A stretch of 64,000 nucleotides of DNA from Hyalangium gracile (GTDB lineage: Bacteria; Myxococcota; Myxococcia; Myxococcales; Myxococcaceae): contig NZ_JAHXBG010000030.1 in the NCBI RefSeq assembly GCF_020103725.1, forward strand, positions 36,337-100,336. The letters are read 5' to 3'. The first letter of the stretch is position 1. Each line of letters opens with the position of its first letter. A program made the translations under genes and the position numbers. The notes below the pieces were generated by a model. The model was not told where the DNA came from and made no database searches. It worked only from the letters and a program-made list of their open reading frames with translations. This document shows positions 16,750 through 64,000 of the stretch, in pieces.

Positions 16750-16869
16750 GGCACACACTTCGAGGGGCCTGGTCGCCGACTTCGGCCGAACTGGTCTGCT
16801 GGTAGGACCAGTTGGTACGCCGCTCGCGCCGGCTGGCGCCCGGCTCCCGGGTCTCCTAGACTCGGGGGC

Positions 16870-18266
<1,397 letters not shown>

Positions 18267-20733: not shown

Positions 20734-21738
20734 TTGAAGCCCGCACCTTCCGCCACCGCGTCGATCACCCCTGTTCCCTCTCCGAGTGCCGGTCCGCCCG
20801 GACTCTCCAAGCGCGCCCGTCCGCGGCGAGTCATCGCCGTGGGCGGCGGCAAGGGGGGGATCGGCAAGACGCTCGTCTCGGCCAACCTCGGGGTGGCCCT
20901 GGCCCAGGCCGGCATGCGCGTGCTGCTGGTGGATGCCGATCTGGGCGGGGCCAACCTGCACACCTGCCTCGGGGTAGGTCAGCCCAGCGCCACGCTGTCG
21001 GACTTCGTCCGCAACAGCAAGGTGGCCATCGAGAACATCATCATCCCCACGGGCGTGCCGCAGCTGTCGCTGATCGCCGGCGCGCAGGACGTGCTGGACG
21101 CGGCCAACATCAAGTACGCGCAGAAGCAGAAGCTGCTGCGCACGCTGCTGGCCCAGCCGGTGGACTACCTGCTGCTGGATCTGGGCGCCGGCACCAGCTT
21201 CAACACCCTGGACTTCTTCCTGGTGGCGGACCACGGCGTGCTGGTGGTGCTGCCGGAGCCCACCGCGGTGGAGAACGCGTACCGCTTCGTGAAGGCGGCC
21301 TTCTTCCGCCGGCTCCAGCAGGTGGAGGCCCAGTACGGCATCGAGGATCTCGTGGAGAGCGCCCTCACCACGCGCGAGGGAGCGCTGCGCACGCCGCACG
21401 ACTTCATCGCCCAGGTGCGCCAGCAGGATCCGGCGGCGGGGGCGCGGCTGGAGCGGGATCTGCAGTCGTTCCGCATCCGCCTGGTGGTGAACCAGGCCCG
21501 CACGGACGCGGACATGAACGTGGGCACCGCCGTGGTGTCCGCGTGGAAGAAGTTCTTCGGCCTGGAGATGGATGATCTGGGGGCCATTCGTTACGACGAC
21601 GAGGCGTGGCGCGCGGTGCGCAAGCGCCGGCCCGTGCTCCTGGAGCGGCCCGACTCGCCCGCCGCCCTGAGCCTCCAGCGCATCGCCGGGCGTATCCTGA
21701 CCATCGACGGTAACGGCAGCGGTTCCTCCACACCATGA
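20734..21738 (+). CDS. ParA/MinD family P-loop ATPase
   Basis: Deviant Walker A (GGGKGGIGKT) and the overall ParA/MinD fold. The N-terminal about 30 residues are Pro/Ser-rich, so the true start may be further downstream. Confidence 0.8.
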   Translation: MKPAPSATASITPVPSPSAGPPGLSKRARPRRVIAVGGGKGGIGKTLVSANLGVALAQAGMRVLLVDADLGGANLHTCLGVGQPSATLSDFVRNSKVAIENIIIPTGVPQLSLIAGAQDVLDAANIKYAQKQKLLRTLLAQPVDYLLLDLGAGTSFNTLDFFLVADHGVLVVLPEPTAVENAYRFVKAAFFRRLQQVEAQYGIEDLVESALTTREGALRTPHDFIAQVRQQDPAAGARLERDLQSFRIRLVVNQARTDADMNVGTAVVSAWKKFFGLEMDDLGAIRYDDEAWRAVRKRRPVLLERPDSPAALSLQRIAGRILTIDGNGSGSSTP

Positions 21739-34962: not shown

Positions 34963-36282
34963 TCAGACGCCGGCCAGCGACACGTTCTGCTGGCGCTTCG
35001 AGAGCACCTTCACCGGCTGGATCGCCATCACGCGCATGAACACCTGGAGCAGCTCCGGGTCGAACTTGTTGCGCATCTCCGTCCACATCAGCATCAGCGC
35101 CACCTCGGGCCCGTACGCGTCCCGATACGGCCGCTTGCTCGTCAGCGCGTCGAACGCGTCGCAGATCGCGATGATCTTCGCGAACACCCCCAGGTTCGTC
35201 TTGGGGATGATCATCTGGATGTTGCCTCGCGAGTCCCGCACCGCCGTCCCGAAGTCCGCCTTGTGCTCGAACGTCGTCACCACCCGCAGCAGCGTCGAGC
35301 GCGAGAAGCCCTTCTCCATCAGGATGTTGCGCACCGAGATCAGCGGCGCCTTCTGGATCTGCGCCTTCTCCTCCGGCGTCAGCGCTCCGCGCTTCGTCGC
35401 CAGCTCCTCCGGCAGCGTCGTCATCCCCGCGTCGTGGAACAGCGCGATGTACCCCAGGTCCCGCAGCTGCGGCTTCGTCAGTCCCAGCTCCGCGCCGAAC
35501 ACGATGCTCATCAGCGCCACGTTCACCTGATGGAAGACCAGGTACTCCGCCTCGCGCTTCGTCGTGGTCATCCCCAGGAAGTGCGTCCGCTGGTCGAAGG
35601 AGATGTCCACCAGATCCTGCACGATGCGCAGCGCCTTGGACGAGTTCATCGGCTTGCCGGCCCGCACCGACTCCAGGTACTTCTGCAGGAAGAACACCGC
35701 GCGCGCGTACACCGTCATCGCGTACTTCTTCCGGTCCACCTTCTGGTCGTCCGGGTTCTCGAGCCGGTCGGCTTCCTTGTTCAGCCGCTCGCGCAGCTTG
35801 GAGAACTTGGCGACCTTCATGTTCAGCAGCTTCCGGTTCGCCAGCCCCTCCTCCTCCACCTGCTGCGTCTGCTCCTTGCTGAAGATCCACACGAAGTTCT
35901 TCAGCTCCGGCAGGGTGATGGGCTTGGTGACGGTGATGCCGCCCACGTCCTTGGCCCGCATCTCCGTCAGCAGGTAGCGCTGGTTCTCGATGGAGTTCAG
36001 GTCCACCTTCACCAGCATGTTGTTCAGGTAGAAGGAGTCCTTCACCCCCACCAGTTCCAGCCGCCCCTCCTTGGAGATGATCTGGTTGATGATGTCCTGC
36101 AGCTGCACCAGCGGCTTCTCGAACACGGCGTTGTCCGGATCGTACATCTTCACGGACCGCACCAGCATGTAGAGCCCGGACACCATGCCGCGCGCCAGCG
36201 ACTGCAGCTTCTCCGAGTGGGCGCGGCCGTACTCGCCGATGTTCTCGCTCTGGCCCTGGGTGATCTTCAGGTTCTCGGCCAT
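34963..36282 (-). CDS. HD-domain protein (HD-GYP-like, GYP motif degenerate)
   Basis: HD motif IALFHDAGM and ICDAFDALTSKRPYR, typical of HD-GYP phosphohydrolases. The HHExxDGxGYP position reads FEHKADFGTAV. Confidence 0.7.
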   Translation of the reverse strand: MAENLKITQGQSENIGEYGRAHSEKLQSLARGMVSGLYMLVRSVKMYDPDNAVFEKPLVQLQDIINQIISKEGRLELVGVKDSFYLNNMLVKVDLNSIENQRYLLTEMRAKDVGGITVTKPITLPELKNFVWIFSKEQTQQVEEEGLANRKLLNMKVAKFSKLRERLNKEADRLENPDDQKVDRKKYAMTVYARAVFFLQKYLESVRAGKPMNSSKALRIVQDLVDISFDQRTHFLGMTTTKREAEYLVFHQVNVALMSIVFGAELGLTKPQLRDLGYIALFHDAGMTTLPEELATKRGALTPEEKAQIQKAPLISVRNILMEKGFSRSTLLRVVTTFEHKADFGTAVRDSRGNIQMIIPKTNLGVFAKIIAICDAFDALTSKRPYRDAYGPEVALMLMWTEMRNKFDPELLQVFMRVMAIQPVKVLSKRQQNVSLAGV

Positions 36283-36286
36283 GACT

Positions 36287-38059
36287 TCATGCCTCCTCGG
36301 CGGCGCCGGCGTCTCCGAACAGCGCCTTCTTCGTCTGGTACATCGCCTTGCGCGCCGCGGTGAGCACCTCCGTCGGCTGCGACTTGTCCTCCACCACGCC
36401 CTGCAGCACCTTGTACGAGTGGATGTTGCTCGCCGCCGCCAGCCCCTGGATGGCCAGCAGCTTGTCGTCCATCACCTTCTTCTTGTTCAGCAGTGACGGC
36501 TTCACCGACAGCAGCTGCGTCATCCACGTCAGCGCGTTGGGCGTCGCCGTGGAGCCCAGCGCCGCGTAGAACGCCATGCGCTCGTCCGGCGTCTTCTTCT
36601 CGAAGTTGGAGCTGTCCTTGATGATGCGCAGCAGGTCCAGGTACGCCTTGTCGTGATCGAACTCCGGCAGCAGCTTCGCCGCCTGCATCCGCACCTGCGA
36701 GATGGGATCGTTGAGCAGGTCCGAGATCAGCTTGCGCGCCTCGTTGGTGTGGCCCCGGGCGACGATGTTCATCACCTCCAGCTTCACCACCAGGTTCTTC
36801 CCCTTGAGCACCTGCCCGAACATCTTCAGCCGGTCCGGGTGCTGGCACTTCTCCAGGATGTAGACCATGTCGCGCACCGTCTGCGGCCGGTCCGACTGCA
36901 GCCGGATGACGAACGGATCCGGCCGGTTCTTGGCGAACCCCGCCAGCACGTCGCACAGGAGCACCCGGTTCTCCTGCACCTCGATCGTCTCCAGCACCGT
37001 GAGCAGGGGGATGATGGCCGGCTCGTCCAGCACCTGGAGGTAGCGGGTGATGTCCGCCGCGTTCCTCGCCTTGGCGTACTTGAGCGACTCGCCCATCCGG
37101 ATCAGCCGCTGCTCATCGCCCATCTTCTGCACGAAGTAGGAGAGCAGCCGCGCGATGGGGTTGCCCTCCGCGTCCTCGCGCTGGGACAGGGCGCGCAGCT
37201 TGAGCACCATCTGGTTGATGGTGCCGTAGTCGTCCTGGATGAGCATGGCGTCCAGCAGCTGGACGAAGATCTCCTCCAGCAGCCCCACGTCCTCCACGCC
37301 GCCTTCCACCACCTGGAAGATGGCGCTCACCAGCTTGGGGAAGAGGCGCGCTCCCTCCTCCTCCTCGATCTCCTTCTGGATGCGGGCCTTCAGCGTGTCC
37401 GAGGCGTAGGTGCCTCCCACCACGACGCCGCGGATCTGCTCCACGCCTTCCATCTGCGCGTCGAGATCCTCCGTCGACACGCGCGCGAAGCGCAGGTAGT
37501 CCTCCGAGTTCGTCTTCAGGCGGGCGTAGAGGTAGCCCACCACCTTGTCCACCTCGACCTGCACCTCCTCCGCGGAGGCGCCGTCCATGGAGAAGCCCTC
37601 CACCACCACGTACTCCACGTGCTCCATGCCCGCCTTCCACAATTGGGCGAGCACGTCGTCCGCGCCGCGCTCCGGCTCCGAGAGCGCGATCAGCGTGAAG
37701 GTGACCAGCTCCTCCAGCGTCATCCCCGGCCGGAAGATCAGCTGGCGGATGCCGTCGCGGAAGAACTTGTAGGGCAGCGGGGTGGACTCGGAGAACAGCG
37801 GCTCGCCGTGCAGCAGGAAGTTCTGCTGCTCGATCTTCAAGGACAGCGGGCCATGCTTCTGCGTGTACTCGCCAATGGCCTCCAGCGCCCGGCCGAGGAA
37901 CTCCGGGAACTTCGCCTCGTTGTGGCGGTACATCCCGATCTGCTTGATGCCTTTGAGGAGCTGGAACGTGAAGTTCCGTGCAAGGTCCACCTTCTCGCGT
38001 ATCACTGGATCCGCGGAAGACTCCTGTGTTGTCTCCTTGGCGTTCTGGGGCGAGGCCAT
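36287..38059 (-). CDS. HEAT-repeat protein
   Basis: C-terminal PBS-lyase/HEAT-like repeats (DPISQVRMQAAKLL...). Lies 4 bp upstream of the HD-domain gene on the same strand. Confidence 0.6.
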   Translation of the reverse strand: MASPQNAKETTQESSADPVIREKVDLARNFTFQLLKGIKQIGMYRHNEAKFPEFLGRALEAIGEYTQKHGPLSLKIEQQNFLLHGEPLFSESTPLPYKFFRDGIRQLIFRPGMTLEELVTFTLIALSEPERGADDVLAQLWKAGMEHVEYVVVEGFSMDGASAEEVQVEVDKVVGYLYARLKTNSEDYLRFARVSTEDLDAQMEGVEQIRGVVVGGTYASDTLKARIQKEIEEEEGARLFPKLVSAIFQVVEGGVEDVGLLEEIFVQLLDAMLIQDDYGTINQMVLKLRALSQREDAEGNPIARLLSYFVQKMGDEQRLIRMGESLKYAKARNAADITRYLQVLDEPAIIPLLTVLETIEVQENRVLLCDVLAGFAKNRPDPFVIRLQSDRPQTVRDMVYILEKCQHPDRLKMFGQVLKGKNLVVKLEVMNIVARGHTNEARKLISDLLNDPISQVRMQAAKLLPEFDHDKAYLDLLRIIKDSSNFEKKTPDERMAFYAALGSTATPNALTWMTQLLSVKPSLLNKKKVMDDKLLAIQGLAAASNIHSYKVLQGVVEDKSQPTEVLTAARKAMYQTKKALFGDAGAAEEA

Positions 38060-38205
38060 GCGTCCTGGACGGTCCGAGCAGAGGGTGGGGGGAACCCCAG
38101 TCTACTCTCTCGGACGTCTCAGGAGAGTCCTGTAACCAAAGAACTACCCGCAGGCCATGTAGGGCGAGGGCCTACCCATCGTGAGGGCCCTCGCCGAGCA
38201 GGCGA

Positions 38206-39096
38206 CTACTGGGCGGCGGCGGTGGTCTCGGGATCCACCTCGGCCATGAGCGCGGCCAGCTCCGCCTTGAGCTTGTCCTTGGCGCGGATCTCCAGCTGGC
38301 GGGCGCGCTCGCGCGAGAAGCCGAAGTGCTCGCCCAGCTCCTTGAGCGTCATGGGGCGCTCGTTCATGACTCGCTGCTCGATGATGAAGCGCTCGCGCGG
38401 ATCCAGCCGCATGAGGGCGGTGCGCACGCGGGTGTTGATGAGGCCCGCCTCCTCCTTGTCGGCGAACTCGTCGTCCTGCGGAGCGGAGGCGCTCACCACG
38501 AAGTCCACGTGGCTGTTGCCGCCGTCCTCGCCCATGGGGGCGTCCAGGGACAGGTCCCGCCCGCCCATGCGCTGCTCCATCTCGCGCACCTCGCCGGGCT
38601 TCACGTGGAGCTTCTTGGCGATGTCATCCACGTTGACGATGGCGCCGTCCGGCGTGCCGAACTTCTCCAGCTCGCGGCGCGTGCGCGCCAGACTGAAGAA
38701 CAGCTTGCGCTGGGCCTGCGTGGTGCCGAGCTTCACCAGCGACCACGACTTGAGGATGTAGTTCTGGATGTAGGCGCGGATCCACCACACCGCGTAGGAG
38801 ATGAGCCGGATGCCCTTGTCGGGGTCGAACTTCTGCACGGCCTTCATCAGGCCGATGTTCCCCTCCTGGATGAGATCGCTCATCTTGATGCCGTAGGAGC
38901 GGTACTCGTAGGCCACCTTCACGACGAAGCGCAGGTTGGAAGTCACCAACCGGTGGCCCGCGGACAGGTCGCCCTTGATGAACTTCCGGGCCAGCGTCTG
39001 CTCCTCCTCCACGGAGAGCAGGGCGTACTGGTTGATCTCCGAGAGGTACATCGCCAGGGAGCCGGAGTTGGACGACTGCTCGTGGGTGTTCTGCAT
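38206..39096 (-). CDS. RpoH-like (sigma-32 family) RNA polymerase sigma factor
   Basis: Sigma-70 regions 2 to 4 plus the RpoH box [19 protein letters not shown]. Start at MQNTHEQ. Confidence 0.85.
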
Positions 39097-39462
39097 GGTT
39101 GATTTCTCCCGACGTGGGGCCTCTGAGGGCCGGTGGAGTGGGTTGGCACCGCTTGACGACCGCACGCTCCATGCCATGAGCAACCGCGGTGCCAGCCTCG
39201 TTTGCGAAAAATCCCCAGGAAGAGCGGGGGGTTGACTCGGAGCCTGCGCGGACCGGATTGACAGGGTGGAAACCGTTACAGGCCACCGCCGGAAACCCCG
39301 GTCCACTCGGGCTGTAGAACTTGCGCCATTTTCAGCCAGGCACCTCCAAGCCCAGGGGATGAGATGGTGCGTGCGTCCCTGCTTTCCAACCCTGTAACGG
39401 GGTGGGCTTGTGTCGTCCGGAGTCGTTTACGTGCTCGAACGCTCGAGGGCCGAGCGGGCGGC

Positions 39463-50874: not shown

Positions 50875-51960
50875 TCAGGCGCCCTCGAACTCGATCTTCG
50901 CGCGCTTCATGACGTAGTCCACCGCCATGAGGTGCATGGCCACCTGCTCGAGGCGGGCGCGGGCCTGGGCGTCGGCCTTGAACGCGGCGGCCACGTCGGC
51001 GGGAGCCAGGCCCTGGGACTCGGCCTCGTCGCGCAGCACCTTGTCCACGAACTCGGGGGTGAGCTTCAGGCCGTCGCGCTTGACGATGGCGCCGAGCGCC
51101 AGGCCGATGCGCAGCCGCAGCTCCACCTCCGCGCGCATCTCCTCGTCCTGGAGCCAGCTGTTGAGCGACTCCTCCTGCTCCTCGTCGGTGAAGTTCAGCT
51201 CGGCCACCGAGGCGCCCTCGGTGGCGCCCCAGCGACGGCGGATCTCCTCGTCGATGAGCTCGGGGGGAACGTCCACCTCGGTGCGCCGGGCCACCTCGCC
51301 GAGCACCATCTGGCGGGCCTGGAGCAGCAGCAGCTGGGCGTGCTCGTCGGCCATCTGCTGGACGACGCTCTGGGTGGCCTCTTCGATCGTCTTGCCGCGA
51401 CCGAAAGCCTCGAGGAACTCGGGGCTCTCCAGGTCCGGGTACTTCACCTCGCGCGCCGCCTGGATGTGCACCAGGAAGCGCGCGGGGGCGCCGCGCAGCG
51501 ACTCCACGGGGTAGTCGTCCGGCAGGGTGATGTCCACGACGATGCCCTCGGTGGGGACCTGGCCCGCAATGGCCTCGTAGAGCCCGGGCAGCAGGGGCTC
51601 GGGCTCCAGCGGCATCCACACGTCCGTCTTCACGCTGAACGGAATGAGCTTGCCGTTGGAGTAGCCCGCAAGGTTGAGCAGCACCTCATCCCCCCAAGCG
51701 ATCTGCTCGGTGGGGAGACGTGCACGCTCGGTGGCGAAGGGGCGCGCCAGCTCCAGGAAGCGCTCCTGCACCTCCTCCGCGGTGAAGCCCTCCGGGGCGG
51801 GGACCTTGATCTCCAGTCCCTCCAACGAAGGGGCGTTCACGACCTCCGGCAGCTGCACCTCCTTGCCCTGAGCCGCCTGCTTGGCGGGGGGGACGTACAG
51901 GGGAACTTCGAGGGGCTTCTTGCCGGAGGGTGTGGTGGGCGGGCTCTTCTTGGAATCCAT
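50875..51960 (-). CDS. hypothetical protein, weak trigger-factor C-terminal-domain-like
   Basis: Acidic 361 aa ORF. The resemblance to the trigger-factor C-domain is weak, and there is no ribosome-binding GFRxGxxP motif. Confidence 0.4.
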
Positions 51961-53390: not shown

Positions 53391-54947
53391 GTGGGAGGCG
53401 GCATGGAGCGTCTGGAAGAAGCCCTGGAGGCCTGGAGGCAGGCGATTGGCGCCGAGCACGTGCGGGTGGACGCGGGGACGCTGGCGGAGGTGGAGCGGGC
53501 GACGTTCGCCACCACCCAGCGGGTGCCGGCGGTGCTTCGGCCCGGGAGCCGGGAAGAGGTGCAGGCATGTATGCGCATCGCCCACACGATGCGAGTGCCC
53601 GTCTTTCCAGTAAGTGGGGGGCGCAACTACGGGTATGGCTCGAGGGTGCCGGCGCGGACGGGGAGCGTGGTGCTGGAACTGGGGCGGATGAACCGGGTGC
53701 TCGACTGGGACGAGGACCTGGCCTACCTGACGGTGGAGCCGGGGGTGACGTTCGCGCAGGCGCACGCGTTCCTGGAGGAGCGCGAGTCGTGGCTGCAGCT
53801 GGCGACGATTGGCGGGCCGCCGCAGGCGAGCCTGATCGGCAACGCGCTGGAGCGGGGTGACGGGGGCGGGCCGCACGGGGACATCTTCCAGTTCGTCTGT
53901 GACTTGGAGGTGGTGCTGCCGACGGGGGAGTTGCTGCGGACGGGGCTGGGGCGCTACCCGGAGGCGTACGCGGCGCCGGTGCTGCGCTGGGGGCCTGGGC
54001 CGGGGCTGGACGGGCTGTTCAGCCAGTCGAACCTGGGGGTGGTGACGCGGATGACGTTCTGGCTGGCGCCGCGGGCGACGAGCGTGCGGATCGTCTCGGG
54101 AGCGCTGGAGGACGCGTCGCAGCTGGGAGAGGTGGTGGATCGGCTGCGGCTGTTGCGGCTGGAGGGGACGCTGCGCGAGGCGTACTCGCTGTGGAACGAC
54201 TTCAAGATGTTCTCGGTGCTGGGGCAGTACCCGTGGGAGGCGACGGAGGGACGGACGCCGCTGCCGGAGACGCTGCGCCAGAGGCTGCGAGAGGAGCAGG
54301 GGCTGGGGTCGTGGCACCTGAGCTTCCTGCTGCAGGCGCCGAGCGAGGAGCAGGTACAGGCGGCGTGGGGCAGGGCGGAGGCGGTGCTCAAGGGAGTGTT
54401 GCCGACGCTGACGTGCTACCGGGAGGAAGAGGTGGAGCAGGACGCGCTGCGGAGGGTGCCCTCGGCGCGCAACCTGCGGATGATGTACTGGCGGCAGCGC
54501 ACGCCGATGCCAGCGGATCCGGATCCGGACCGAGATGGCTGCGGGTTCGTGTGGCTGTCGTGCGCGGTGCCGATGAAGGGAGGGCACGTGGAGCGGGCGC
54601 TGGCGATCGCCGAGCCGCTGCCGCTCGAGTACGGCTTCGAGCCCAACCTGTGCGTGCTGGGGGTCGTTCCGCGGTGCGCGTACCTGGTGGTGGCCCTGGC
54701 GTACGACCGGAAGGTGGAGGGCGAGGATGCGCGAGCCCTGGCCTGCTACGAGGCGCTCCAGAAGGCGATGAACGAGGCGGGCTACTACCCGGCACGCCTG
54801 GGCATCCAGGCGCCGGTGCTCATGGCCACTGCGGAAGACGACTCATCGCGGGTGCTGGGAGCGCTCAAGGCAGCGCTGGATCCGCACGGCATCCTGGCGC
54901 CAGGGCGCTACCTGCCGGCCATTGATGACGAAGGTCTTGTTCGATGA
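53391..54947 (+). CDS. FAD-binding (PCMH-type / FAD_binding_4) oxidoreductase
   Basis: FAD-binding domain (PAVLRPGSREEVQACMRIAHTMRVPVFPVSGGRNYGYG). An alternative ATG exists at 53403. Confidence 0.8.
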   Translation: MGGGMERLEEALEAWRQAIGAEHVRVDAGTLAEVERATFATTQRVPAVLRPGSREEVQACMRIAHTMRVPVFPVSGGRNYGYGSRVPARTGSVVLELGRMNRVLDWDEDLAYLTVEPGVTFAQAHAFLEERESWLQLATIGGPPQASLIGNALERGDGGGPHGDIFQFVCDLEVVLPTGELLRTGLGRYPEAYAAPVLRWGPGPGLDGLFSQSNLGVVTRMTFWLAPRATSVRIVSGALEDASQLGEVVDRLRLLRLEGTLREAYSLWNDFKMFSVLGQYPWEATEGRTPLPETLRQRLREEQGLGSWHLSFLLQAPSEEQVQAAWGRAEAVLKGVLPTLTCYREEEVEQDALRRVPSARNLRMMYWRQRTPMPADPDPDRDGCGFVWLSCAVPMKGGHVERALAIAEPLPLEYGFEPNLCVLGVVPRCAYLVVALAYDRKVEGEDARALACYEALQKAMNEAGYYPARLGIQAPVLMATAEDDSSRVLGALKAALDPHGILAPGRYLPAIDDEGLVR

Positions 54948-55109
54948 CGACAAACTGGATGCGGTGCGCACGGACCCTTCAGATTCCAGGGTAAGAAGGA
55001 TCAACTGCGCCGGATCATCGGCCGGTAGAACACTCCTCGCTTGACGCCACTCAGCCCATCCTGGATTGCAAAGCCCCAGGCAGGTCGAATGCTTTTCGTG
55101 CGCTCCGTC

Positions 55110-58100
55110 CTATGCATGAGGAGATGGCCACGGCGCCACCTGCTGGATGCGCTCGGTGACTTCCTGCCGAACACGAGCGTAGTCCTCGATGAGCTTTGCC
55201 ACCGTCGGGCTTTGCCGCGTCTCATTATCCTTCTTGAGCTTCTCTTCCCTGATTGCGAGCCAGTTTTGGGCCTCCCGAGCCTGCTCCAACAAGGCCTTGG
55301 CCGGGTCCTCCACGCTCGTGAGCGAGGGCTGTCCTCCGGCAACGCCTGATTCGGCGGCCTTCCGCAGAGCGAGCCCCGCCTGGAGCGTGCACTGAACCAA
55401 ATCCCCCAAGTACGAGGGCTGGACGTTGCCGTCGAACATGCGGATGGCCTCCCACATTCGCTCGATACCTACCATCGGCTCGTTCTTCCGCGCTAGGATC
55501 TTGCCCCACTCGAACCGGGACGAGGGCCGCCGTTCCGCCGCTTTCTTGAAGTAATCGGCTGCTTGGTCGTGGTCCGTTGGCTCTCGAGAGGCGAAGTAGA
55601 AGCCGTACTCCTCGTTCACCAGCGGGTCATCCGGGTTGATTTGGGAGGCACGTTTGAGCGCGCGCTCGGCGTACTCCTCCCAGCGTGGCCAGTTCGCTTG
55701 GCGGTACACTCGCGCCAAGCAGGTGTGCGCTGCGATGAGGTCGGGCAGGTAGGTGAGCGCGCGTTGCATGAGCGCCTCGCTATCTTTTCGGACCACCCGC
55801 TGGAGCGCTTCCCGGCTTCGCGAGTCCAGCTTTTCCGGGGAAAGGCTCGGCAACTCGTTCTCCAACTTGGAACGTGCCTCTTGCAACTGCTCGGAAGAGA
55901 ACTCCATCAACTCGGCCTGATCCAGACGTCGCCGGCCCATGACATAGAGTGCGTAGCCGCGCACTGGAGCGAACTCCTTCTCGGTGACGCCCTTCGGAGG
56001 AGTGCTCTTCTCGAAGAAGGCCTCCAACTCCCGGATCTGTGCATCCAAATCGGCGGATTCCTCGGCGGTGAGTTGGTGCCGCGTGGACTTCCCCGTTCGC
56101 ATCTTCCCGCAGACCTCCAAGAGGCAGGCTTTTGCGTCCAGCGCGAGCCTTCCCTCGTGCGCTGCTAGCTCCTTGAAGACCTTGTGTGCGCCCCTGAGCG
56201 CGGCGAGCCATCGTCCCTGAGCTTGGAGCAGTGCGGAGTGATACTTCTTCTCGTCCGAGAGCTGCCCTTCGGGCAGCTCTTCCAGCAGTGCGCGGGCGAC
56301 CTCGGGCTCGCGCAGCTTCCGCATGACGATCGCCAGCTTCAGCTTGGCGTGCGCCATCCGCGGATCATGGGCCAGGGCCGCCTGCAAAAGGTCTCGGGCC
56401 TTCTTGAGAGCTTGCGCCCGGTCATCTTGCGGCAGGACACCATCCATCACGAGTAGCGCCTGATAGTACGCGGCGAAGGCATCGGGACTCTTCGTCATCT
56501 GCTTGTCTGCCGGGAACTTTTGGTGCGCGAGCTTGAGTGCAAGCTGCCGGAAGGCGTCGTTGGTGGCGGCAGCAGTGATCCCTGTGGCTATCGCGGTCCA
56601 GCGGCCGATTTCCTTCCCGGTCGCGTTGTCGAACTTCCGGATGAACACCCGGATGTTCCCGCCTTCCACGGAGACGACCCCCGTCAGTTGATAGCGCCGC
56701 TGCTTAAAAGCAAGCTGCGCGAGGATGTTCCAAAGCGCTTTGGCTGGGACCGACAGCGGCCCGACAGTTACCTTCTGCTCATCGCCCAGGTACTGCGCGA
56801 AGTCCTTGAGGCTCTCATAAGCGGTGGAGTCCCACTGGGGCAGCGCCTCGCCGAGGTTCGCCTCGTGTCCGGTTACCGGCACCGTGGGCTGGAGGGCAAC
56901 TTCCTGGAAGCAGACTTTGAGCCTCGCCATCTGCAGCTCACTCGCACCGGGCCTCGCCTCGTCGCTCAGGTCGTAGATCACCAGCTCAGAGTCTTCCCGC
57001 CGTTTCAGGAAGAGGCGCTGGATCCACGCCTTGCACTGCAGCAGCAGGGATACCAGCAGAAGAAGGACGATGACCCCGAGCAACACGAGCACTGGGGTCT
57101 TAAAGGGAGCCACAACCTCCTTGAGCCAGTGCCAGAGCGATAGGATGAGATGATCCTGCTCCTCGATCATTGCCCTGCCGCTTGCAATCTCCTCGATGAG
57201 GGTTGGTACGCCCTGCGCGAGAGGCTCCATCTCGGCATAGAGCTTCTTGGCCTCCTCAAAATTTCGGGAGTCGACGGCAGCTTTCACCTTCGCGCGGAGT
57301 GCGTTGTAGTCCGTGCTCCATTTCTCCAGGTGGTAGACGTAGGCGATCAGCTCTGGAAAGTCCTTGAGCTTGCTGGAACCCCTCAGTGTGGTCAGCATCT
57401 CTGCGATGCTTTGATGCGCGCCGTAGGCAAGCTTGATCAGGTTCTCCTGCCGCCGGATCTCAGCGAGCGCATCCTGGTACCGGCCTAGGATGAGCCGGGC
57501 GGGAGCGTTGCCGGGGGTGGGCATGGTGGCCGTCAGGGTCTTCTGGAGCAACTCGGACGCTCCGTCCACCGGCTTGCCGTCCTTACCAGTATCCGTCCAC
57601 ATTCGGCCGGCGGCTGCGGCCGCGCGGACCTCCGAGAACCCTTTCAACCAAGCATCAGTCATGCCAGCTGCATAGGTCGCACGAGCCGTGTTGTAGGCTG
57701 CGGCCGCGAATTCGATCTCCTCCTTTAGCTTGGGCGTGAGGGCCGTCTGGGCGAGCGGTTGCACTTGGGCTTGCTCGTACAGCAGCATTGCTTGCGCGAG
57801 GTCTCCTCGGCTCAGGGCCTCGCTGGCTGCCTTCCGGAGGGCTTCGAGGTCCGCTTGCCAACGCTGGAGCCGGTAAACGTGGGCGAGGAGTTCCGGCTGG
57901 TTCTCCAGCTTCTTGGAAGCCTTGAGATGGGCCAAGAGTTCCGCAGTTCCAGTTCCATCGGTTGTTGTATAGATGTAGCGGAAGCGCATCTCGCCGCTTC
58001 GCAGTTCCTCAAGCGCCTCCTTATATTGGAGCAGCTCATCGGTTTGTGGCTGGGCACTGCCCACGATATCCAGAGCCCCCCCAGGGACGAACAGCCGGCC

Positions 58101-58208
58101 CTCTGCGGCTGCCACTTTCGCCTGCTGTAGGGGCGTGGCAGACCCCTGGGGCTGAGCGCTGATCGCTAGGAGAGTTAGCACACGGACGAATAGGAGGGAC
58201 GATGCCAT
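55110..58208 (-). CDS. large membrane-anchored TPR-repeat protein
   Basis: Signal peptide (MASSLLFVRVLTLLAISAQ), internal TM helix (VLVLLGVIVLLLLVSLLL), many TPR-like helical repeats. GC lower than the genome backbone. Confidence 0.65.
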   Translation of the reverse strand: MASSLLFVRVLTLLAISAQPQGSATPLQQAKVAAAEGRLFVPGGALDIVGSAQPQTDELLQYKEALEELRSGEMRFRYIYTTTDGTGTAELLAHLKASKKLENQPELLAHVYRLQRWQADLEALRKAASEALSRGDLAQAMLLYEQAQVQPLAQTALTPKLKEEIEFAAAAYNTARATYAAGMTDAWLKGFSEVRAAAAAGRMWTDTGKDGKPVDGASELLQKTLTATMPTPGNAPARLILGRYQDALAEIRRQENLIKLAYGAHQSIAEMLTTLRGSSKLKDFPELIAYVYHLEKWSTDYNALRAKVKAAVDSRNFEEAKKLYAEMEPLAQGVPTLIEEIASGRAMIEEQDHLILSLWHWLKEVVAPFKTPVLVLLGVIVLLLLVSLLLQCKAWIQRLFLKRREDSELVIYDLSDEARPGASELQMARLKVCFQEVALQPTVPVTGHEANLGEALPQWDSTAYESLKDFAQYLGDEQKVTVGPLSVPAKALWNILAQLAFKQRRYQLTGVVSVEGGNIRVFIRKFDNATGKEIGRWTAIATGITAAATNDAFRQLALKLAHQKFPADKQMTKSPDAFAAYYQALLVMDGVLPQDDRAQALKKARDLLQAALAHDPRMAHAKLKLAIVMRKLREPEVARALLEELPEGQLSDEKKYHSALLQAQGRWLAALRGAHKVFKELAAHEGRLALDAKACLLEVCGKMRTGKSTRHQLTAEESADLDAQIRELEAFFEKSTPPKGVTEKEFAPVRGYALYVMGRRRLDQAELMEFSSEQLQEARSKLENELPSLSPEKLDSRSREALQRVVRKDSEALMQRALTYLPDLIAAHTCLARVYRQANWPRWEEYAERALKRASQINPDDPLVNEEYGFYFASREPTDHDQAADYFKKAAERRPSSRFEWGKILARKNEPMVGIERMWEAIRMFDGNVQPSYLGDLVQCTLQAGLALRKAAESGVAGGQPSLTSVEDPAKALLEQAREAQNWLAIREEKLKKDNETRQSPTVAKLIEDYARVRQEVTERIQQVAPWPSPHA

Positions 58209-58301
58209 GCTCTGCTCCACCTTCCGGAAGTGCGGCGCATCATGGGCCCTGGTGCCCTTCCCCGAAAGAGGAGACGAGCAGCTAGGGGCCAGACGATTTC
58301 C

Positions 58302-60251
58302 TCATCCAGCTCCGCCGCCGCTCTTGCTGATAGTGCGAAGGATGGCGTAGCGCCTGGAAACCCATTGCCCTGGTTTCGTGAAGTCAAGCTGCCTGCGTTC
58401 ATCGAGAGTGACCAGCTTCTTGTAGAAGCTAAGATGCGGCGGCTGGCGCAGATAGTCACCGAGCTTTTCGGCGGCCTCATCCTGCGAATTGTAGAACGCC
58501 ACCGTCTTTGTCTTCACCGGCTCCGTGCTCACCAGGATCTCACCGCGCCCTTCATTGAAGTACCGGTTCAGGATGTAGGTATCCACGATGGGCACCTCGT
58601 CGATGATCTGCAGGGACCCGAGCGCCGAGTTCAAGACCACGCAGCACTCAATCGAGACCGCCGCCGGATCCACGTTGCCACCTACCTTGTTCACCTCGTC
58701 GGCGAGCCAGGCTGGGTTTTCGCGGACATACTTCACCTTGCCCTGAAGCTGCTTGACGGCGTCGCGGATGCGCTCCTCATGCAGGAACCATTCATGCGAC
58801 GTGGCCGGCCGCCGGAAGCATTTGATCTCACCCACCAGGATCTTGTTGCCGATCCACACCACTAGGTCGAGGTCGCCCACGGAGGAATCGGGGGGCTGGA
58901 GTTTGTGGGGAACAACCCCGGAGAAGTTCCAGTGCGGCTTGCCCTTTATCTTCTTCGCGAGCGAGGCCCGGACATGGTCTTCGTAGGAGGTGCCGCGTTT
59001 TCCCAAATCCCATCCTCCTTCGCTCATCCAGTACTCGAGCGAACGCCGCAGATTGGGGGATTGGAGCGCGGCAAGCACGATGACCCGGTGCTCGGGACCG
59101 ACACTCACAAGGGGCCTGAACCAAAGGCTGTCACGGACTGTCCGCCACGTGAGCGCATCGATGATAGTGCGGCACCGCTCGTCCGCGAGACCGGTGGCCT
59201 TGGCGAGTGCGGCAACCAGCGCTCGTACTGGGATGAGTGGGGCAAGCTCCTCGAACTGCGCTGGGTGGGTGAGGGGGATTCGGGGCATGCGAGAGGCAAT
59301 GTCCATAGTCAGGGGGACGAGGGCCGCCCAAGCCTCCAGCATCTCGAGGAGCGTCACCCCACCGAGCGACTCCAAGGGCTCTTTCGCGTGTGGGTCGAGA
59401 TCGGGCTCGCTCGCGACCATCCGCCAGAGGTGGATCTGAACCGCCATGTCTTCGGTGGTCTCTCCGACGTGAACCTTTCCGCTCAACTTCCTGAAGCGGA
59501 TGGCCTTTCGGCGCAGGATGGCGTCAAGCACGCGGGGTAACTTGCGAAGTCCCTCGATGCCGTGCTGCATCATTTCCTGTACCAGCATGGTCTCCCGATC
59601 CAAGCCGAGGGCACGCGCACTGGCACGCTCAAGGTCACGAGGAACCAGCTGGGTAGGCTGATCCTCCGGCATCTCCACCGCCAGATCGTGATGAAGACAC
59701 TCCATCCAGTCCTCCTCAAGCCCGTGATAGGCGATCGTGAAATTGAGCCGCAGGAACATCTGGCGCAGCTGTCCCAGCCCGTCGAGCTCGTTAGCGAAGG
59801 TGCGCGGAGTGCTCGCCGTCAAGGCCGCCAGCTCGAAGCGGAGCCCGTCCACGGTTCCCTCCACTGTAGCCTCGGCGGGGGCCACGTTCACATTCCCGGC
59901 GAGAGAAATCCTGCTCTCCACTATATCCCGCTGCGTGATCGTGCCACGAGTCGCGGCAAGGTTTCGTTGGACGGTCTCCGCCACCGTCAGGCATTCACGG
60001 TTGACCAGTCCAACCGCGCGCCGGATGATTTGATCGGGACGGCCTGGGGGCACGGGGGTTGCCTCGAAATACGCGCGTAGCCCCTCAAATTGGGAGTCGA
60101 ACCAGAGTGCTGCCGCGAACAGACGCAGATCTTCCAGACTGGGGGATGGGATGGCACGAAGCGCGGAGAGCCACTGCTCTGGCTCGAAGCCCTTCTGTGA
60201 CGGTCCCTTAAGGTCTCCCTCAAGGACACGGGTGCGAAGCGTCTTTTGCAT
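58302..60251 (-). CDS. hypothetical protein with C-terminal PD-(D/E)xK / NERD-like nuclease motif
   Basis: 650 aa from MQKTLRTRV. The C-terminus has GDLDLVVWIGNKILVGEIKC (D...E-x-K arrangement). GC lower than the backbone. Confidence 0.5.
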   Translation of the reverse strand: MQKTLRTRVLEGDLKGPSQKGFEPEQWLSALRAIPSPSLEDLRLFAAALWFDSQFEGLRAYFEATPVPPGRPDQIIRRAVGLVNRECLTVAETVQRNLAATRGTITQRDIVESRISLAGNVNVAPAEATVEGTVDGLRFELAALTASTPRTFANELDGLGQLRQMFLRLNFTIAYHGLEEDWMECLHHDLAVEMPEDQPTQLVPRDLERASARALGLDRETMLVQEMMQHGIEGLRKLPRVLDAILRRKAIRFRKLSGKVHVGETTEDMAVQIHLWRMVASEPDLDPHAKEPLESLGGVTLLEMLEAWAALVPLTMDIASRMPRIPLTHPAQFEELAPLIPVRALVAALAKATGLADERCRTIIDALTWRTVRDSLWFRPLVSVGPEHRVIVLAALQSPNLRRSLEYWMSEGGWDLGKRGTSYEDHVRASLAKKIKGKPHWNFSGVVPHKLQPPDSSVGDLDLVVWIGNKILVGEIKCFRRPATSHEWFLHEERIRDAVKQLQGKVKYVRENPAWLADEVNKVGGNVDPAAVSIECCVVLNSALGSLQIIDEVPIVDTYILNRYFNEGRGEILVSTEPVKTKTVAFYNSQDEAAEKLGDYLRQPPHLSFYKKLVTLDERRQLDFTKPGQWVSRRYAILRTISKSGGGAG

Positions 60252-60600
60252 GTGAGTCGGGCAGCATCCACCTGGAGCCCTCGGACGTCGAGCACTTCTA
60301 GCAAGGCTGCTCGCTCGCCCTGTTAGGGGCGTGTCGGGGTATTGCCTGAGATTGGCTCCTACATACGATCCATAGCGGTATGCAAAGATCGCACCACTCA
60401 TCCTATAGTGGGTTGTTGGGATTCCCTGACAGACTCCTAGACGAAAGTGGCGCTGGTGGACAGGTGGGAACTATGGACAACTCGGAAGGGTGCCGTGGAA
60501 AGCCACTGAATTCGATGGGGTGGGTACGGACATGCGATCTTCTCCACCAAATCGCTCGGTGATTCCCGGCCGGGTGGCAGTAAGCGAGACGAGGGGGACC

Positions 60601-63600
60601 ATGAGCGAAGTGGAGATGAATCGATGGGCACAGTCGCTGAACGCATACAACGGCTGGGAACTCCTGTCGGGAACTGCCGGGCTCCAGTTGATGCGGGAGA
60701 ACGTGGATCGTGTGCTCAGGTTGGAGGCTGCGGCAGCTCTCGTGGCCTCGATGCCGCCTAAGCGGGACGGCGCTCGGATGACGCCACATCGCTGGGGTAC
60801 GTGGCTGAACGATTCTAAACTAGTAGCAGCAGTGGCGCCCAGCGAAGATCCGTTCGCCTACCCGCTCGTCGAGGAGATCGTGTTCTACGGAGGCTCATTC
60901 AGGGTATTTCCTGGCTCCTTTGACGAATCGGCCTACATCATTCGAAACCTGTTGAAGGCGATGTTTCTCGCGCGAGATTTTCCCGATATCGCTTTCGCTG
61001 ATTCGATGCGCCAGATCTGTGGCGCCGTGCTTCGAATCAGTGATTGCGTCGCCAAACGAGCGGGAGTGACCCGGGGGACCTTCGCGTCGCATGAGGGGAC
61101 GGGTGTGACGATTCCGCCATCAGCCCGGTTCGAGGAACTCAGGCGTGCCGTGGCCTTCACGCAGGAGGATTTGAGCCAGCTTCTGTCCGACATTGAGGAC
61201 GGCGTTTCCATCCTGGTGCCTCTGATGGCCAAGTGGGGAGAAATCCGGTTTGACTCCGTTGATCCATCCTTAAATCCTCTGCTTCCACAGCCGCTTGTGG
61301 ACTGCGGCGACACGATCGTGGTCGCAGCGCCTCATGCCCTCTTGGCCGCGCTCCGGCATCACATCTTGTCAGAAGCGTCCAAGGCAGGATGCTCCGAAGA
61401 ACTCGCCAAGCGCTACCACCTTGCGATCCTCGATTCTGTCGATCACTCATTCGAGTTCATGAGCGCTCGGCCTGCCCCATTTCCGTTGAGTACAACGACT
61501 CAGGGAGGGCTCATCTCTTCGGATCGCCTCTTTCAATTCGATACCGATAAGATCTTGTCTGTCATGCTTGCAACCAATTCTTTAGCTGATTACGAGGGAC
61601 AACCCATCGTTGGCACATGGAACCCTGATTCGCTAGAGGATGTGGTGATGCAGCGGCTCCGTTGCGTGGAGTCGTCGGTGATGCAACAGAAGACACCACC
61701 CAACGAGATCCTTCATGTGATCGTGATTCACAGCGCTGGGCTCATGGCCAGTATGGGGCTTCGTTCTGGCGTGTCCTCTATCGAGGCTCCCATTCTCCTG
61801 ATGTCAGCGGCGGAACTGGAGATCATCGCCCAACTGGAGATGGGGCACCAACTTGCGCTGTATGATTTTGTGCGTGCACGTGAATGGACTCGGGGCAGAA
61901 CGAACATCTTCGTGTGGGGGGTGCTCGATGAGTTCGCAATGTATAGAAAGAACAAGTACAGTTATTACGCCTCTGACGAATGGCAGCCCCACATGCTTAG
62001 TGTACAGGCGGGGTTCGCGGAGGAACTTCGGCGCCAAGTCATAGAGAAACGTGACGTGCACGGTGTCCGTTTCCCTGGCACGTCCGGCTTCGGTGAGGTA
62101 ACCCTCTCCGCAGACGATCGCTCCATCCCGACATACGTCCCATTTCCGCTTAGGGAACGAGCGATGTTCTTAGTCGAAGGACTCCCGCTGCCCATCTGGG
62201 TGACTGGACCGGAGCAGACGGCGGACAAACGCTATCGCTCGCTTCAGTTCAACTTCGCGGACACGATCGCTTACTGGATCTGGCAATTTACTCCTGTGTT
62301 GGCGAAGATGCTTGAGCGCTGCGCGCCGGTCCAAGAAATCCAGATAGAGGTCGACCTTCAGCCCGGTGAGACTTGGTTCCGAGCGGACGAGGGGGTGCAG
62401 TCGCAATTGCCCAAGGATGAGATTACGTGCGAAGTCACCGGACCGACGCGGCTTACTCTCCGCTTGTACGCGGGACTTCTGACCCTGATGGCGGGCCCGG
62501 ACAATCGGGGCGAGCGCGACCTCATGATCTCCGTTCTGGCGGGAATCGCCAAGCTTCTGGCTAGGAATGGTGTCGAGGCGTCCGGTTTGGCGCGCGAGGA
62601 GTTGGCTCAAGTTATCGACGTCCATGCCCCCCTGGGGTTGAAGAAAAAGATGGTCATCGTACCGAAGAGGCTTGCCTTCGACCTAATGGCTGATGGCTTG
62701 CCTTCCTATCGGAAGCTACATCGGTCGCACGATGATGAACTACTGGATGGCATGGCGAACGTCGTAGCCAAGAAGTACAACCTCCGGGTTGGGCCGATTC
62801 CGGAATCAATCGTGTCGGCGGTGCTCCGAGATGCCGTGGCGTACTACTTCGATGCGCTGAAGAGGCTGATCTCCACACTTCAGCCAGTGCAGTTGCTGAA
62901 CTGGTTGGTCGCGCAAAACGAGAGCATCATTCGTGAATGGCGCGACAAGGATTTCTCTGCCGCCACGCGAATGGCCTGCTTTGCGACCCAAACGGCAATG
63001 GTTCAGCGCCTCGTGGAAGAGGTTCCGGAGTTGAACAGCACGTGGCTGCCTAGTCGGTTTCTTATCGAATTTGCGACAGCGTGTCCTCCCAAGGGGCTGC
63101 GGCCTATGAGCTTCAGCGTCTACGACCGGTTGATCTCGCTGGCGTCCATGGTCTTCAATTGGGGGTTTGCGAGCGACATGGTGTACTACAAACTCGGCGA
63201 CGTTCGGGTCGACATGCTTCGCTCCGGTCGATTGGGCATTGATTGGAGGACCTATGACAAGGCGCGAGATCAATTCCTCGGGAGCCACCTGCTAGGTCAA
63301 ATCGACGCGAGCATTCGCTCGTTCCCTGAGCGCTGGGAAGAGGTCGAGGAGCCATCTGGCGAGGGCGAAGCGCCCGCGCTCATTCGCAGGATCGATGACG
63401 CGGCTCTGAAGGAGTTCGGCTTCACCTTATCCGAACTTTTCGCATTTCTAGTCGAGGTCATGAACGTCGGTTTGGAGATGGAACATGAGCCGAAGCGCTG
63501 TGAACTCGGCTGGTTCATGTCACAAATGGCGGCGAGGCTGGGCTGGACGGTCGACAAGGTGCGGCTCGCCTTCGAACTGTTCGCGCTACCTCCACGGGAG

Positions 63601-64000
63601 GCCTTCCTGTCTCCGCCGGCTCCATTTAGCCGTGAGGATGTGTACCCCTGGCGATTCAACCGCGCGCTTTCGTATCTCCGCAAGCCGCTGCTTTTGTATC
63701 GTGAGCGCGACGTCGAGGAGGTGATCTGGGGCACCCGGGCCGTGACCGTCGCGGGAGAGTATCTTCAGCGGATCTGCGTGGATGGTCAGCTGCGCGCGCG
63801 CACGCCCGAGATGCGGCGCTGCAACGGACATTTGAACAACCGGTGGGGTCGCGGGTTCAATGACACGGTGACGAAGGTTCTGGCGGGCATGCCTGGATAC
63901 TTGGTTCGGCCCAGAGTCGCGAAGGTCGGCTCTCTCAAGTTTGCACGCGACAATGGAGAAGATCTGGGCGATATCGACGTGTTGGTGGCGATCCCGGACC
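60601..64000 (+). CDS. very large hypothetical protein (over 1130 aa; 3' end lies outside the window), possible C-terminal PD-(D/E)xK/NERD-like region
   Basis: ATG at 60601 preceded by GAGGGGG. No in-frame stop codon through position 64000 on manual translation. The last residues (GDIDVLVAIPD) resemble the start of a PD-(D/E)xK core. Absent from the ORF track because it is an open-ended ORF. Confidence 0.6.
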   Translation, partial: MSEVEMNRWAQSLNAYNGWELLSGTAGLQLMRENVDRVLRLEAAAALVASMPPKRDGARMTPHRWGTWLNDSKLVAAVAPSEDPFAYPLVEEIVFYGGSFRVFPGSFDESAYIIRNLLKAMFLARDFPDIAFADSMRQICGAVLRISDCVAKRAGVTRGTFASHEGTGVTIPPSARFEELRRAVAFTQEDLSQLLSDIEDGVSILVPLMAKWGEIRFDSVDPSLNPLLPQPLVDCGDTIVVAAPHALLAALRHHILSEASKAGCSEELAKRYHLAILDSVDHSFEFMSARPAPFPLSTTTQGGLISSDRLFQFDTDKILSVMLATNSLADYEGQPIVGTWNPDSLEDVVMQRLRCVESSVMQQKTPPNEILHVIVIHSAGLMASMGLRSGVSSIEAPILLMSAAELEIIAQLEMGHQLALYDFVRAREWTRGRTNIFVWGVLDEFAMYRKNKYSYYASDEWQPHMLSVQAGFAEELRRQVIEKRDVHGVRFPGTSGFGEVTLSADDRSIPTYVPFPLRERAMFLVEGLPLPIWVTGPEQTADKRYRSLQFNFADTIAYWIWQFTPVLAKMLERCAPVQEIQIEVDLQPGETWFRADEGVQSQLPKDEITCEVTGPTRLTLRLYAGLLTLMAGPDNRGERDLMISVLAGIAKLLARNGVEASGLAREELAQVIDVHAPLGLKKKMVIVPKRLAFDLMADGLPSYRKLHRSHDDELLDGMANVVAKKYNLRVGPIPESIVSAVLRDAVAYYFDALKRLISTLQPVQLLNWLVAQNESIIREWRDKDFSAATRMACFATQTAMVQRLVEEVPELNSTWLPSRFLIEFATACPPKGLRPMSFSVYDRLISLASMVFNWGFASDMVYYKLGDVRVDMLRSGRLGIDWRTYDKARDQFLGSHLLGQIDASIRSFPERWEEVEEPSGEGEAPALIRRIDDAALKEFGFTLSELFAFLVEVMNVGLEMEHEPKRCELGWFMSQMAARLGWTVDKVRLAFELFALPPREAFLSPPAPFSREDVYPWRFNRALSYLRKPLLLYRERDVEEVIWGTRAVTVAGEYLQRICVDGQLRARTPEMRRCNGHLNNRWGRGFNDTVTKVLAGMPGYLVRPRVAKVGSLKFARDNGEDLGDIDVLVAIPD

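Follow-up and report, generated by a model that had tools for sequence, protein, structure and literature searches.

Introduction

Upx is said to have been described by Gao et al. in 2020 as a single-gene defence system. The Salmonella enterica protein (SeUpx) is a monomer with N-terminal, middle, and C-terminal domains, the last of which is a PD-(D/E)xK nuclease, and phage defence was abolished by the substitution E1176A or the double substitution E1176A/K1178A (PMC13099982). A catalytic role has been established for D1161, E1176, and K1178 (PMC13099982, PMC13601566), and a non-canonical N-terminal nuclease site comprised of D122, D127, R129, E147, and D173 has been proposed for SeUpx (PMC13099982). 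Furthermore, three Upx homologues with identity as low as 16% were activated by the ATPase domain of diverse large terminases, activation is predicted to proceed by beta-augmentation of a locally unfolded state, and some Upx genes are associated with a split-TPR (tetratricopeptide repeat) variant of Avs1 or with a second Upx; the published list holds 2,093 Upx homologues (PMC13601566). The locus compared with these systems here lies in a stretch of 64,000 nucleotides from Hyalangium gracile (assembly GCF_020103725.1, contig NZ_JAHXBG010000030.1, positions 36,337 to 100,336), hereafter the window. From about 55 kb to its end the window has a lower GC content and encodes three large proteins, termed P1, P2, and P3. 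The stretch is probably a horizontally acquired defence island with two independent nuclease units, P3 being a divergent Upx and P2 a second nuclease, with P1 perhaps as an accessory or passenger.

P3, a divergent Upx homologue

The features of P3 in the window are as follows.

60601..64000, plus strand: P3, predicted Upx-family nuclease, first 1133 of 1241 codons (WP_224248958.1; 100% identical to P0001)
60784..61404, plus strand: P3 residues 62-268, colinear with the N-terminal (sensor) domain of SeUpx, residues 94-290 (phmmer, 23.1 bits, i-Evalue 1.4e-4)
62911..63999, plus strand: P3 residues 771-1133, the part visible in the window of the putative Upx C-terminal domain (phmmer, P3 771-1183 against SeUpx 803-1219, 60.9 bits)
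63967..63978, plus strand: P3 G1123 to D1126 (GDID), with D1126 aligned to the catalytic D1161 of SeUpx

The full-length P3 is 1241 amino acids (aa) long, and the window ends at residue 1133. P3 was matched by the PADLOC model for Upx (PDLC02221, 3e-30) and by NCBIfam NF042954 ('anti-phage protein Upx'; 1.6e-36 for the part in the window and 3.8e-44 at full length), with residues 540-1199 of P3 corresponding to profile positions 556-1207 of 1240. The precomputed Pfam family of the protein is PF28173 (Upx-like), and the sole solved structure matched was 9wuf_A, the cryo-electron microscopy structure of Salmonella Upx (2.6e-23). Two stretches of P3 and SeUpx were colinear (phmmer; 62-268 with 94-290 and 771-1183 with 803-1219), and P3 is a distant but colinear Upx homologue. 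An earlier interpretation of the window made from the letters alone (the sequence-only reading) had recognised no known domain across most of the length of the three proteins, which fails for P3. Its suggestion of a nuclease-based defence system, for which it had proposed running defence-system predictors, gains from the PADLOC match: P3 is a homologue of a characterised anti-phage nuclease and by analogy would share its activity, although the suggestion is not supported in the form of one three-gene system of unknown type.

The catalytic residues D1161, E1176, and K1178 of SeUpx align to D1126, E1141, and K1143 of P3, all three of which were invariant in 16 Upx-like sequences. E1141 and K1143 are encoded 21-29 bp past the window end and were read from the identical full-length P0001. 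The NCBIfam score of P3 was 150 bits, compared with an equivalog cut-off of 1900 bits, and P3 is labelled 'hypothetical protein' at NCBI because its NF042954 score is far under that cut-off. This shortfall limits the automatic naming of P3 and not its membership of the Upx family, since the model is tuned to close Salmonella-type Upx and tested homologues range down to 16% identity (PMC13601566).

The five residues proposed as the N-terminal nuclease site of SeUpx (D122, D127, R129, E147, and D173) correspond to E91, S99, R101, F122, and D148 of P3 in a weak 23-bit stretch with gaps nearby. Within this weak stretch R101 and D148 are identical, E91 is a D-to-E exchange, and S99 and F122 are replacements. 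For the N-terminal domain of P3 the sensor reading is favoured over a second nuclease. By analogy with Upx, the partner of the N-terminal and middle region of P3 (~900 aa) would be a phage protein, for which a large-terminase ATPase domain is the likeliest candidate. Binding would release or activate the C-terminal PD-(D/E)xK nuclease (D1126/E1141/K1143), and the activated protein would degrade DNA and abort infection.

P2, a probable nuclease family with the Upx C-terminal module

P2 is encoded on the opposite strand, with the following features.

58302..60251, minus strand: P2, 649 aa (WP_224248957.1; identical to P0006), with a start common to its homologues
58542..59363, minus strand: P2 residues 297-570, module homologous to the Upx C-terminal region, comprised of a helical/winged-helix-like part and a PD-(D/E)xK core
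58821..58982, minus strand: predicted catalytic residues of P2, namely E424 (58980-58982), D462 (58866-58868), E475 (58827-58829), and K477 (58821-58823)

P2 consists of a distinct N-terminal domain (residues 1-296), the module resembling the C-terminal region of Upx, and a beta-rich tail of ~80 aa. Profiles were needed to detect its homology with P3, as BLASTP of P2 against P3 returned a short motif only (E 1.0). Profile-profile alignment (hhalign) of the P2 family with 16 Upx-like proteins gave a probability of 98.2% and an E-value of 4.3e-14 over 249 columns, aligning P2 297-570 with P3 939-1241, and the hidden Markov model (HMM) of P2 matched several Upx-like proteins directly, down to 1.2e-11. 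The sequence-only reading had noted that the last visible residues of P3 (GDIDVLVAIPD) resemble a motif in P2. This resemblance proved to be real homology, and 'the same motif' understates it, as the two proteins share a module of ~270-320 residues. P2 had also been described as ending in GDLDLVVWIGNKILVGEIKC, which is instead located at residues 459-478 of 649, ~170 residues before the C-terminus. No counterpart in Upx was detected for the first ~300 residues of P2. Judged by these alignments, P2 carries the Upx module but is not a member of Upx, being half as long and showing no full-length colinearity.

Structure prediction of P2 with AlphaFold2 (AF2) using only three sequences was unusable (predicted local distance difference test, pLDDT, of 44) and was repeated with 56 sequences, yielding a model with a pLDDT of 92.8. 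In this model the catalytic residues are placed on helix 418-436 and on strands 463-467 and 470-477, and the alpha-beta-beta-beta-alpha-beta core carrying E...D...ExK that characterises the PD-(D/E)xK superfamily was found. E424, D462, E475, K477, C478, and Q501 were invariant in the 56-sequence alignment of the P2 family (20-41% identity).

A word-indexed search for P2 yielded three relatives only. Exhaustive HMMER search of 1.84 billion representatives yielded 1127 clusters at E<=1e-3 and 374 at E<=1e-30, i.e. ~1,100 clusters at 50% identity, and nearly all members are 630-690 aa long and colinear from about residue 7 to 610. The family is absent from Pfam, NCBIfam, and PADLOC: P2 had no significant match to any Pfam, NCBIfam, PADLOC, or PHROG family, neither P2 nor seven of its relatives matched Upx in PADLOC, and P2 did not match Upx in NCBIfam. 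Foldseek of the whole of P2 against PDB and BFVD returned nothing significant, the matches being small PD-(D/E)xK domains only. The PD-(D/E)xK/NERD-like domains of the sequence-only reading were borne out in part, with related PD-(D/E)xK modules present in both P2 and P3. The NERD assignment of P2 was not sustained, as NERD (PF08378) scored 14.6 bits (E 0.05) and the gathering threshold of 22.1 was not reached; among the relatives, 9 of 56 matched NERD at E<=0.01, with 1.7e-4 as the best value.

Based upon structure and gene context, P2 would be a second nuclease effector acting as a single protein, with a ~300-aa recognition domain of its own and E424, D462, E475, and K477 in its nuclease, and the N-terminal domain may act as a phage sensor or as a reader of DNA or DNA modification. 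That the P2 family alone constitutes an anti-phage system of one gene, a 'mini-Upx' whose sensor domain is not that of Upx, is a tentative proposal for which the case falls just short of even. In FokI and in Type IIS and Type IV endonucleases, the PD-(D/E)xK core is found behind helical or winged-helix DNA-binding domains. One reading would make P2, either alone or together with P1, a solitary restriction-type endonuclease of a Type IV (modification-dependent) or Type IIS-like kind, in which DNA is recognised by the N-terminal and winged-helix parts. Such a DNA-recognising, restriction-like mode is the main alternative for P2 and is considered rather unlikely: P2 is most similar to Upx in both structure and profile, and Upx responds to a phage protein; Pfam revealed none of the known reader domains for DNA modification (SRA, YTH, SBD, etc.) in P2; and the PD-(D/E)xK fold matches are generic.

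Distribution and gene neighborhoods of the two nucleases

A scan for Upx-like loci with one genome per species revealed 21 further loci, with 27-79% identity, in Acidobacteriota, Chloroflexota, Actinomycetota, Planctomycetota, Clostridia, and Myxococcota. Clustering of all flanking open reading frames (ORFs) from these loci, together with two further loci taken in for this step (L022 and L023, described below), revealed no conserved neighbour of the Upx-like genes, and the relatives of P3 were found to be stand-alone genes as is the case for Upx. The closest relative of P3 was found in a Myxococcaceae metagenome-assembled genome (MAG; L001, DATHBR010000029.1) at 82% nucleotide identity, without P1 or P2. 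Homology of this locus to the window is confined to the Upx-like gene and ~106 bp upstream of it (blastn, alignment).

The Upx-like gene of L001 is disrupted, being broken by an insertion of ~1.6 kb (10315-11889) in which the opposite strand encodes an IS66-family transposase (DDE_Tnp_IS66, E 1.1e-37). A Pyrinomonadaceae MAG (L002, JAVEDP010000042.1) contains tandem full-length Upx-like genes at 10049-13705 and 13711-17427, 5 bp apart, which are 34-36% identical to P3 over their full length and belong to the same Upx-like clade. This tandem agrees with the reported association of Upx with a second Upx (PMC13601566) and may represent the clade of the 'PbUpx' tested in that study. The pair recalls P3 and P2; however, both L002 copies are full-length, whereas P2 is half that size and has only the C-terminal module.

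Relatives of P2 were solitary in ~10 other contexts, and neither P1 nor Upx was present in any of those examined. One is located downstream of an integrase fragment (L023), and at L024, L031, and L032 the preceding genes encode HEPN/RES-NTD1+RES, TIR_2, and an unknown protein. Another (L028) lies in a prophage, with the replication module on one side and the genes for terminase, portal, and capsid on the other, where it adjoins Mrr_cat, HTH_17, and Peptidase_M78 genes; a further one (L029) adjoins RecA, an integrase fragment, and umuDC-like genes. Plasmid-borne relatives were found in Rhizobium, Alteromonas, Bacillus, and Klebsiella, the Alteromonas copy being beside umuDC-like genes and an AbiEii toxin and the Klebsiella copy beside a phosphorothioate-dependent restriction enzyme, CbtA/YeeU, and antirestriction genes. 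A search for related loci with a 13-sequence P2 alignment recovered four metagenome loci and none from viral contigs, and tblastn of the prophage-borne relative against a phage collection yielded no match. No recurring partner gene of the P2 relatives was found in the contexts examined. This pattern suggests an accessory gene that is mobile and stands alone, for which defence would be the simplest role.

In two unrelated loci, L029 (8663-14457) and L036 (3327-7140), P2-family genes are beside umuD/umuC-like pairs, i.e. an S24 peptidase and a Y-family polymerase. Such neighbours could stem from mobile elements under common SOS control or could indicate a connection with DNA damage. A role outside immunity, with P2 and P3 in DNA repair, recombination, or mobile-element maintenance and P1 as an unrelated envelope protein, is very improbable, as Upx is experimentally anti-phage in three divergent homologues (PMC13099982, PMC13601566) and the sporadic, phylum-spanning distribution, low GC, and neighbours from mobile genetic elements and defence systems are typical of defence and not of housekeeping repair.

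Arrangement of the three genes and the Myxococcus fulvus counterpart

P1 is located 93 bp downstream of P2 on the same strand, and P2/P1 and P3 are divergent and separated by 349 bp.

60252..60600, no strand: divergent intergenic region of P2 and P3, of which the last ~106 bp (60495-60600) are conserved upstream of the Upx-like gene of L001

No convincing sigma-70-type promoter was found in this region by a consensus scan. The same three genes are present in Myxococcus fulvus (L022, JALPKM010000025.1), where the P2 homologue, the P1 homologue 69 bp downstream, and then an Upx-like gene (52% identity) are located on one strand. The P2 homologue (L022 10001-12075) is split into calls of 404 aa and 203 aa by a frameshifting insertion of ~125 nt, and is either a pseudogene or the product of an assembly error. 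The M. fulvus island has a GC of 0.51-0.65 compared with 0.70, and transposase genes (IS66 and rve) mark its end. Just upstream of the P2 homologue it contains an HTH_17 gene and a gene for an 823-aa protein with AAA_15 and OLD-like TOPRIM domains (L022 6159-8630; L033 375-2846), which by domain content is of the Gabija GajA, PARIS AriA, or OLD type.

The trio was therefore moved or kept as a block in two genera, with the orientation of the Upx gene differing, and P2 accompanies P1 in both of the genomes in which P1 occurs. No other evidence speaks for coupling. P2, P1, and P3 might then form one three-component system in which P1 serves as a membrane-anchored TPR sensor or scaffold over one or both nucleases. 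H. gracile and M. fulvus both have all three genes together, with 50-55% identity between the proteins, P1 follows P2 at a short distance in both although the Upx gene is inverted or relocated and the flanks differ, and accessory TPR proteins and paired Upx-type nucleases have precedent (PMC13601566). This possibility is judged unlikely, since the closest Upx-like gene (L001) shares only ~106 bp of upstream sequence and occurs without P1 and P2, the 20 further Upx-like loci contain neither a conserved neighbour nor a P2-family gene, and the P2 relatives lack P1 and Upx in all other contexts examined. Furthermore, P1 lacks a nucleoside triphosphatase (NTPase) domain and is matched by neither Avs nor PADLOC models, the P2 copy of M. 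fulvus seems to be frameshifted, and two genomes are too few to tell functional linkage from shared descent of one island. The single three-gene system of unknown type implied by the sequence-only reading is accordingly not supported, with Upx-like genes solitary in 21 other loci, P2 relatives solitary in ~10 contexts, and P1 having one homologue. Two independent nuclease units are rated well above one three-gene system, because Upx-like genes and P2 relatives each stand alone elsewhere and L001 is without P1 and P2.

Composition and extent of the island

The island boundaries within the window are as follows.

54948..64000, no strand: low-GC, low-GC3 (GC at third codon positions) island, with its left edge between 54948 and 55109 and its right edge past the window end, which cuts P3

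The GC content was 0.696 for positions 1-55000 and 0.605 for positions 55001-64000. In 1-kb windows it ranged from 0.64 to 0.79 over 1-55 kb and from 0.56 to 0.63 over 55-64 kb, and all 9-kb windows of the first 55 kb averaged 0.697 +/- 0.011 with a minimum of 0.669, placing the island ~8 standard deviations below the backbone. The step occurs at about 54,800-55,000 and is bracketed by the stop of an FAD-oxidase-like gene (54947) and the P1 stop (55110). GC3 was 0.77 for P1, 0.76 for P2, and 0.69 for P3, compared with 0.90-0.96 in seven upstream neighbour genes. The genes flanking the island have no counterpart beside the homologous islands of M. fulvus (L022/L033) or beside the Upx-like gene of L001. 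These data fit an island that Hyalangium gracile acquired horizontally and whose left part lies in the window; acquisition is proposed because the composition shift is accompanied by the occurrence of the same genes in a low-GC, insertion sequence-rich island of M. fulvus with different flanks. Most compositional and structural claims of the sequence-only reading are in agreement with these results: the GC drop at ~55.0 kb (0.605 against 0.697 by sliding windows, the profile not being uniform), the altered codon usage (GC3 0.69-0.77 against 0.90-0.96), the three large genes in divergent layout (P2/P1 on the minus strand, P3 on the plus strand), and a horizontal origin, which both the composition and the differently flanked M. 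fulvus island support.

The only tRNA in the window is a tRNA-Ala (CGC) at 23258-23337 on the minus strand. Rfam matched nothing in 50-64 kb, and promoter and terminator consensus scans gave background-level results only. A lower-GC stretch at 35-39 kb was considered as a second island and rejected on account of GC3 values of 0.96-0.98, as in native genes; more broadly, window positions 34963-39306 have a GC of 0.64-0.66 and a GC3 of 0.91-0.98, consistent with native genes of unusual amino-acid composition. The highest 1-kb GC (0.79), with strongly negative GC skew, was observed at 22001-23000. A long ORF call (21735-23516) spans this interval and overlaps the tRNA-Ala gene, and the call is doubtful. 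At 50875-51960 on the minus strand, near the ribosomal protein L3 gene (48441-49109), a 361-aa protein matches positions 105-409 of trigger factor TIGR00115 (E 4e-37, under cut-off), i.e. only the C-terminal three quarters, and looks truncated or paralogous.

P1, an orphan membrane protein

The features of P1 are as follows.

55110..58208, minus strand: P1, 1032 aa with the NCBI start, the ORF extending to 58220 (identical to P0009; 'tetratricopeptide repeat protein' at NCBI)
58152..58208, minus strand: signal-like hydrophobic segment of P1, residues 1-19 (hydropathy 1.63)
57033..57095, minus strand: transmembrane segment of P1, residues 372-392 (Kyte-Doolittle 19-residue window up to 3.19), followed by KAWIQRLFLKRRED

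The sequence-only reading had described P1 as a 1032-aa TPR protein with a signal peptide and a transmembrane helix, which is in agreement with the signal-like segment, the transmembrane segment, and TPR matches that are weak (TPR_19, E 1.3e-4; PilW-like model, 2.3e-8). The N-terminal part of ~350 aa is helical and contains an internal duplication of ~105 aa. The basic residues following the transmembrane segment suggest, by the positive-inside rule, a cytoplasmic C-terminus, such that the N-terminal part would be periplasmic and the C-terminal part of ~640 aa, with TPR-like repeats, cytoplasmic. Among 5.8 billion proteins the sole homologue of P1 was that of M. fulvus (P0010, 1016 aa), which is 55% identical over the full length. 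P1 had no PADLOC or PHROG match, and neither NTPase nor Avs models of Pfam, NCBIfam, and PADLOC matched it.

An assignment of P1 as an Avs-like sensor (STAND NTPase and TPR) was rejected, no NTPase domain having been detected. A Walker-A-like string, GKMRTGKST, occurs at about residue 700 of P1; its first glycine is not conserved in the sole homologue, and the string is probably due to chance. A TPR protein encoded downstream of a P2 relative at L030 was found to be unrelated to P1.

As a best guess, P1 would serve P2 as an accessory or regulator specific to the lineage, or else be a mere passenger, and the P2-P1 pair is possibly a lineage-specific operon. A more elaborate arrangement would make P2 and P1 a two-gene immune module in which the membrane TPR protein P1 senses an envelope or early signal and controls P2, and which, paired in myxobacteria with a full-length Upx, would layer early sensing at the membrane upon late sensing of terminase. 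We regard this arrangement with considerable doubt.

Weight of the evidence for two independent nuclease units

The interpretation of the island as a carrier of two independent nuclease units builds on the compositional shift, homologies, conservation of catalytic residues, and gene contexts shown above, from which defence activity, its triggers, and any P1-P2 link may be inferred. Several points weigh against it. For P3, the 150-bit score against a cut-off of 1900 bits and the low identity to SeUpx mean that its putative function is carried over from a remote homologue; no more than three of the five N-terminal nuclease residues appear to be matched; and the ExK residues and the remainder of the island are outside the window. 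The host of P3 is a myxobacterium, unlike those of the characterised Upx, and its function is assigned by homology only. The two published accounts of Upx themselves conflict, one point being the trigger (gp16 as opposed to terminase) and the other whether a second nuclease resides in the N-terminal domain (PMC13099982, PMC13601566). For P2, a defence role would follow from guilt by association, and the two relatives beside umuDC-like genes would also fit DNA metabolism or mobile-element maintenance. Lastly, the retention of the trio in two genera despite rearrangement could mean functional coupling, although this is less likely.

Implications

With P3, the range of Upx comes to include the predatory, high-GC myxobacteria, a group whose phage defence has received little study; by itself this is an ordinary gain in annotation. 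The P2 family is the more useful result, as it combines the Upx effector module with a different front end and is in no current catalogue; it was seen in metagenomic contigs, in plasmids of four genera, and in one contig with phage replication and packaging genes. Should P2 act in defence, Upx would belong to a wider class of nucleases that combine a common C-terminal module with interchangeable sensor domains, and catalogues of defence systems would gain a candidate in the P2 family. P2 is directly testable, given its high-confidence model and its invariant catalytic residues.

Comparison with known systems

P2 differs from FokI and from Type IIS and Type IV endonucleases in that its score against these is lower than that against Upx, with no sequence similarity, and in that it has neither a partner methyltransferase nor a recognised DNA-reader domain. 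The P2 pattern GxxFE...D...ExK matches the nuclease core of Can2; unlike Can2/Card1 (DUF1887), however, P2 has no CARF domain, and its similarity to Can2 and NERD is limited to ~60-140 residues. P1 resembles Avs, including the split-TPR Avs1 found near some Upx (PMC13601566), in being large, TPR-containing, and encoded beside Upx, but differs in having no NTPase domain, no PADLOC or Pfam match to Avs, and both a signal-like segment and a transmembrane helix.

The closest likeness is that of P3 to Upx, with a similar size (1241 compared with 1272 aa), colinear N- and C-terminal matches, an aligned D...ExK, relatives that stand alone, and a patchy distribution across phyla. Unlike SeUpx, P3 is very divergent, with D127 and E147 apparently replaced by S99 and F122 in a weak alignment, and is encoded beside a shorter relative, P2. 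P3 is a Upx homologue of a known kind and P2 belongs to an uncatalogued family; no mechanism is overturned and nothing is categorically new, the island placing a distant Upx next to a protein that shares its C-terminal module.

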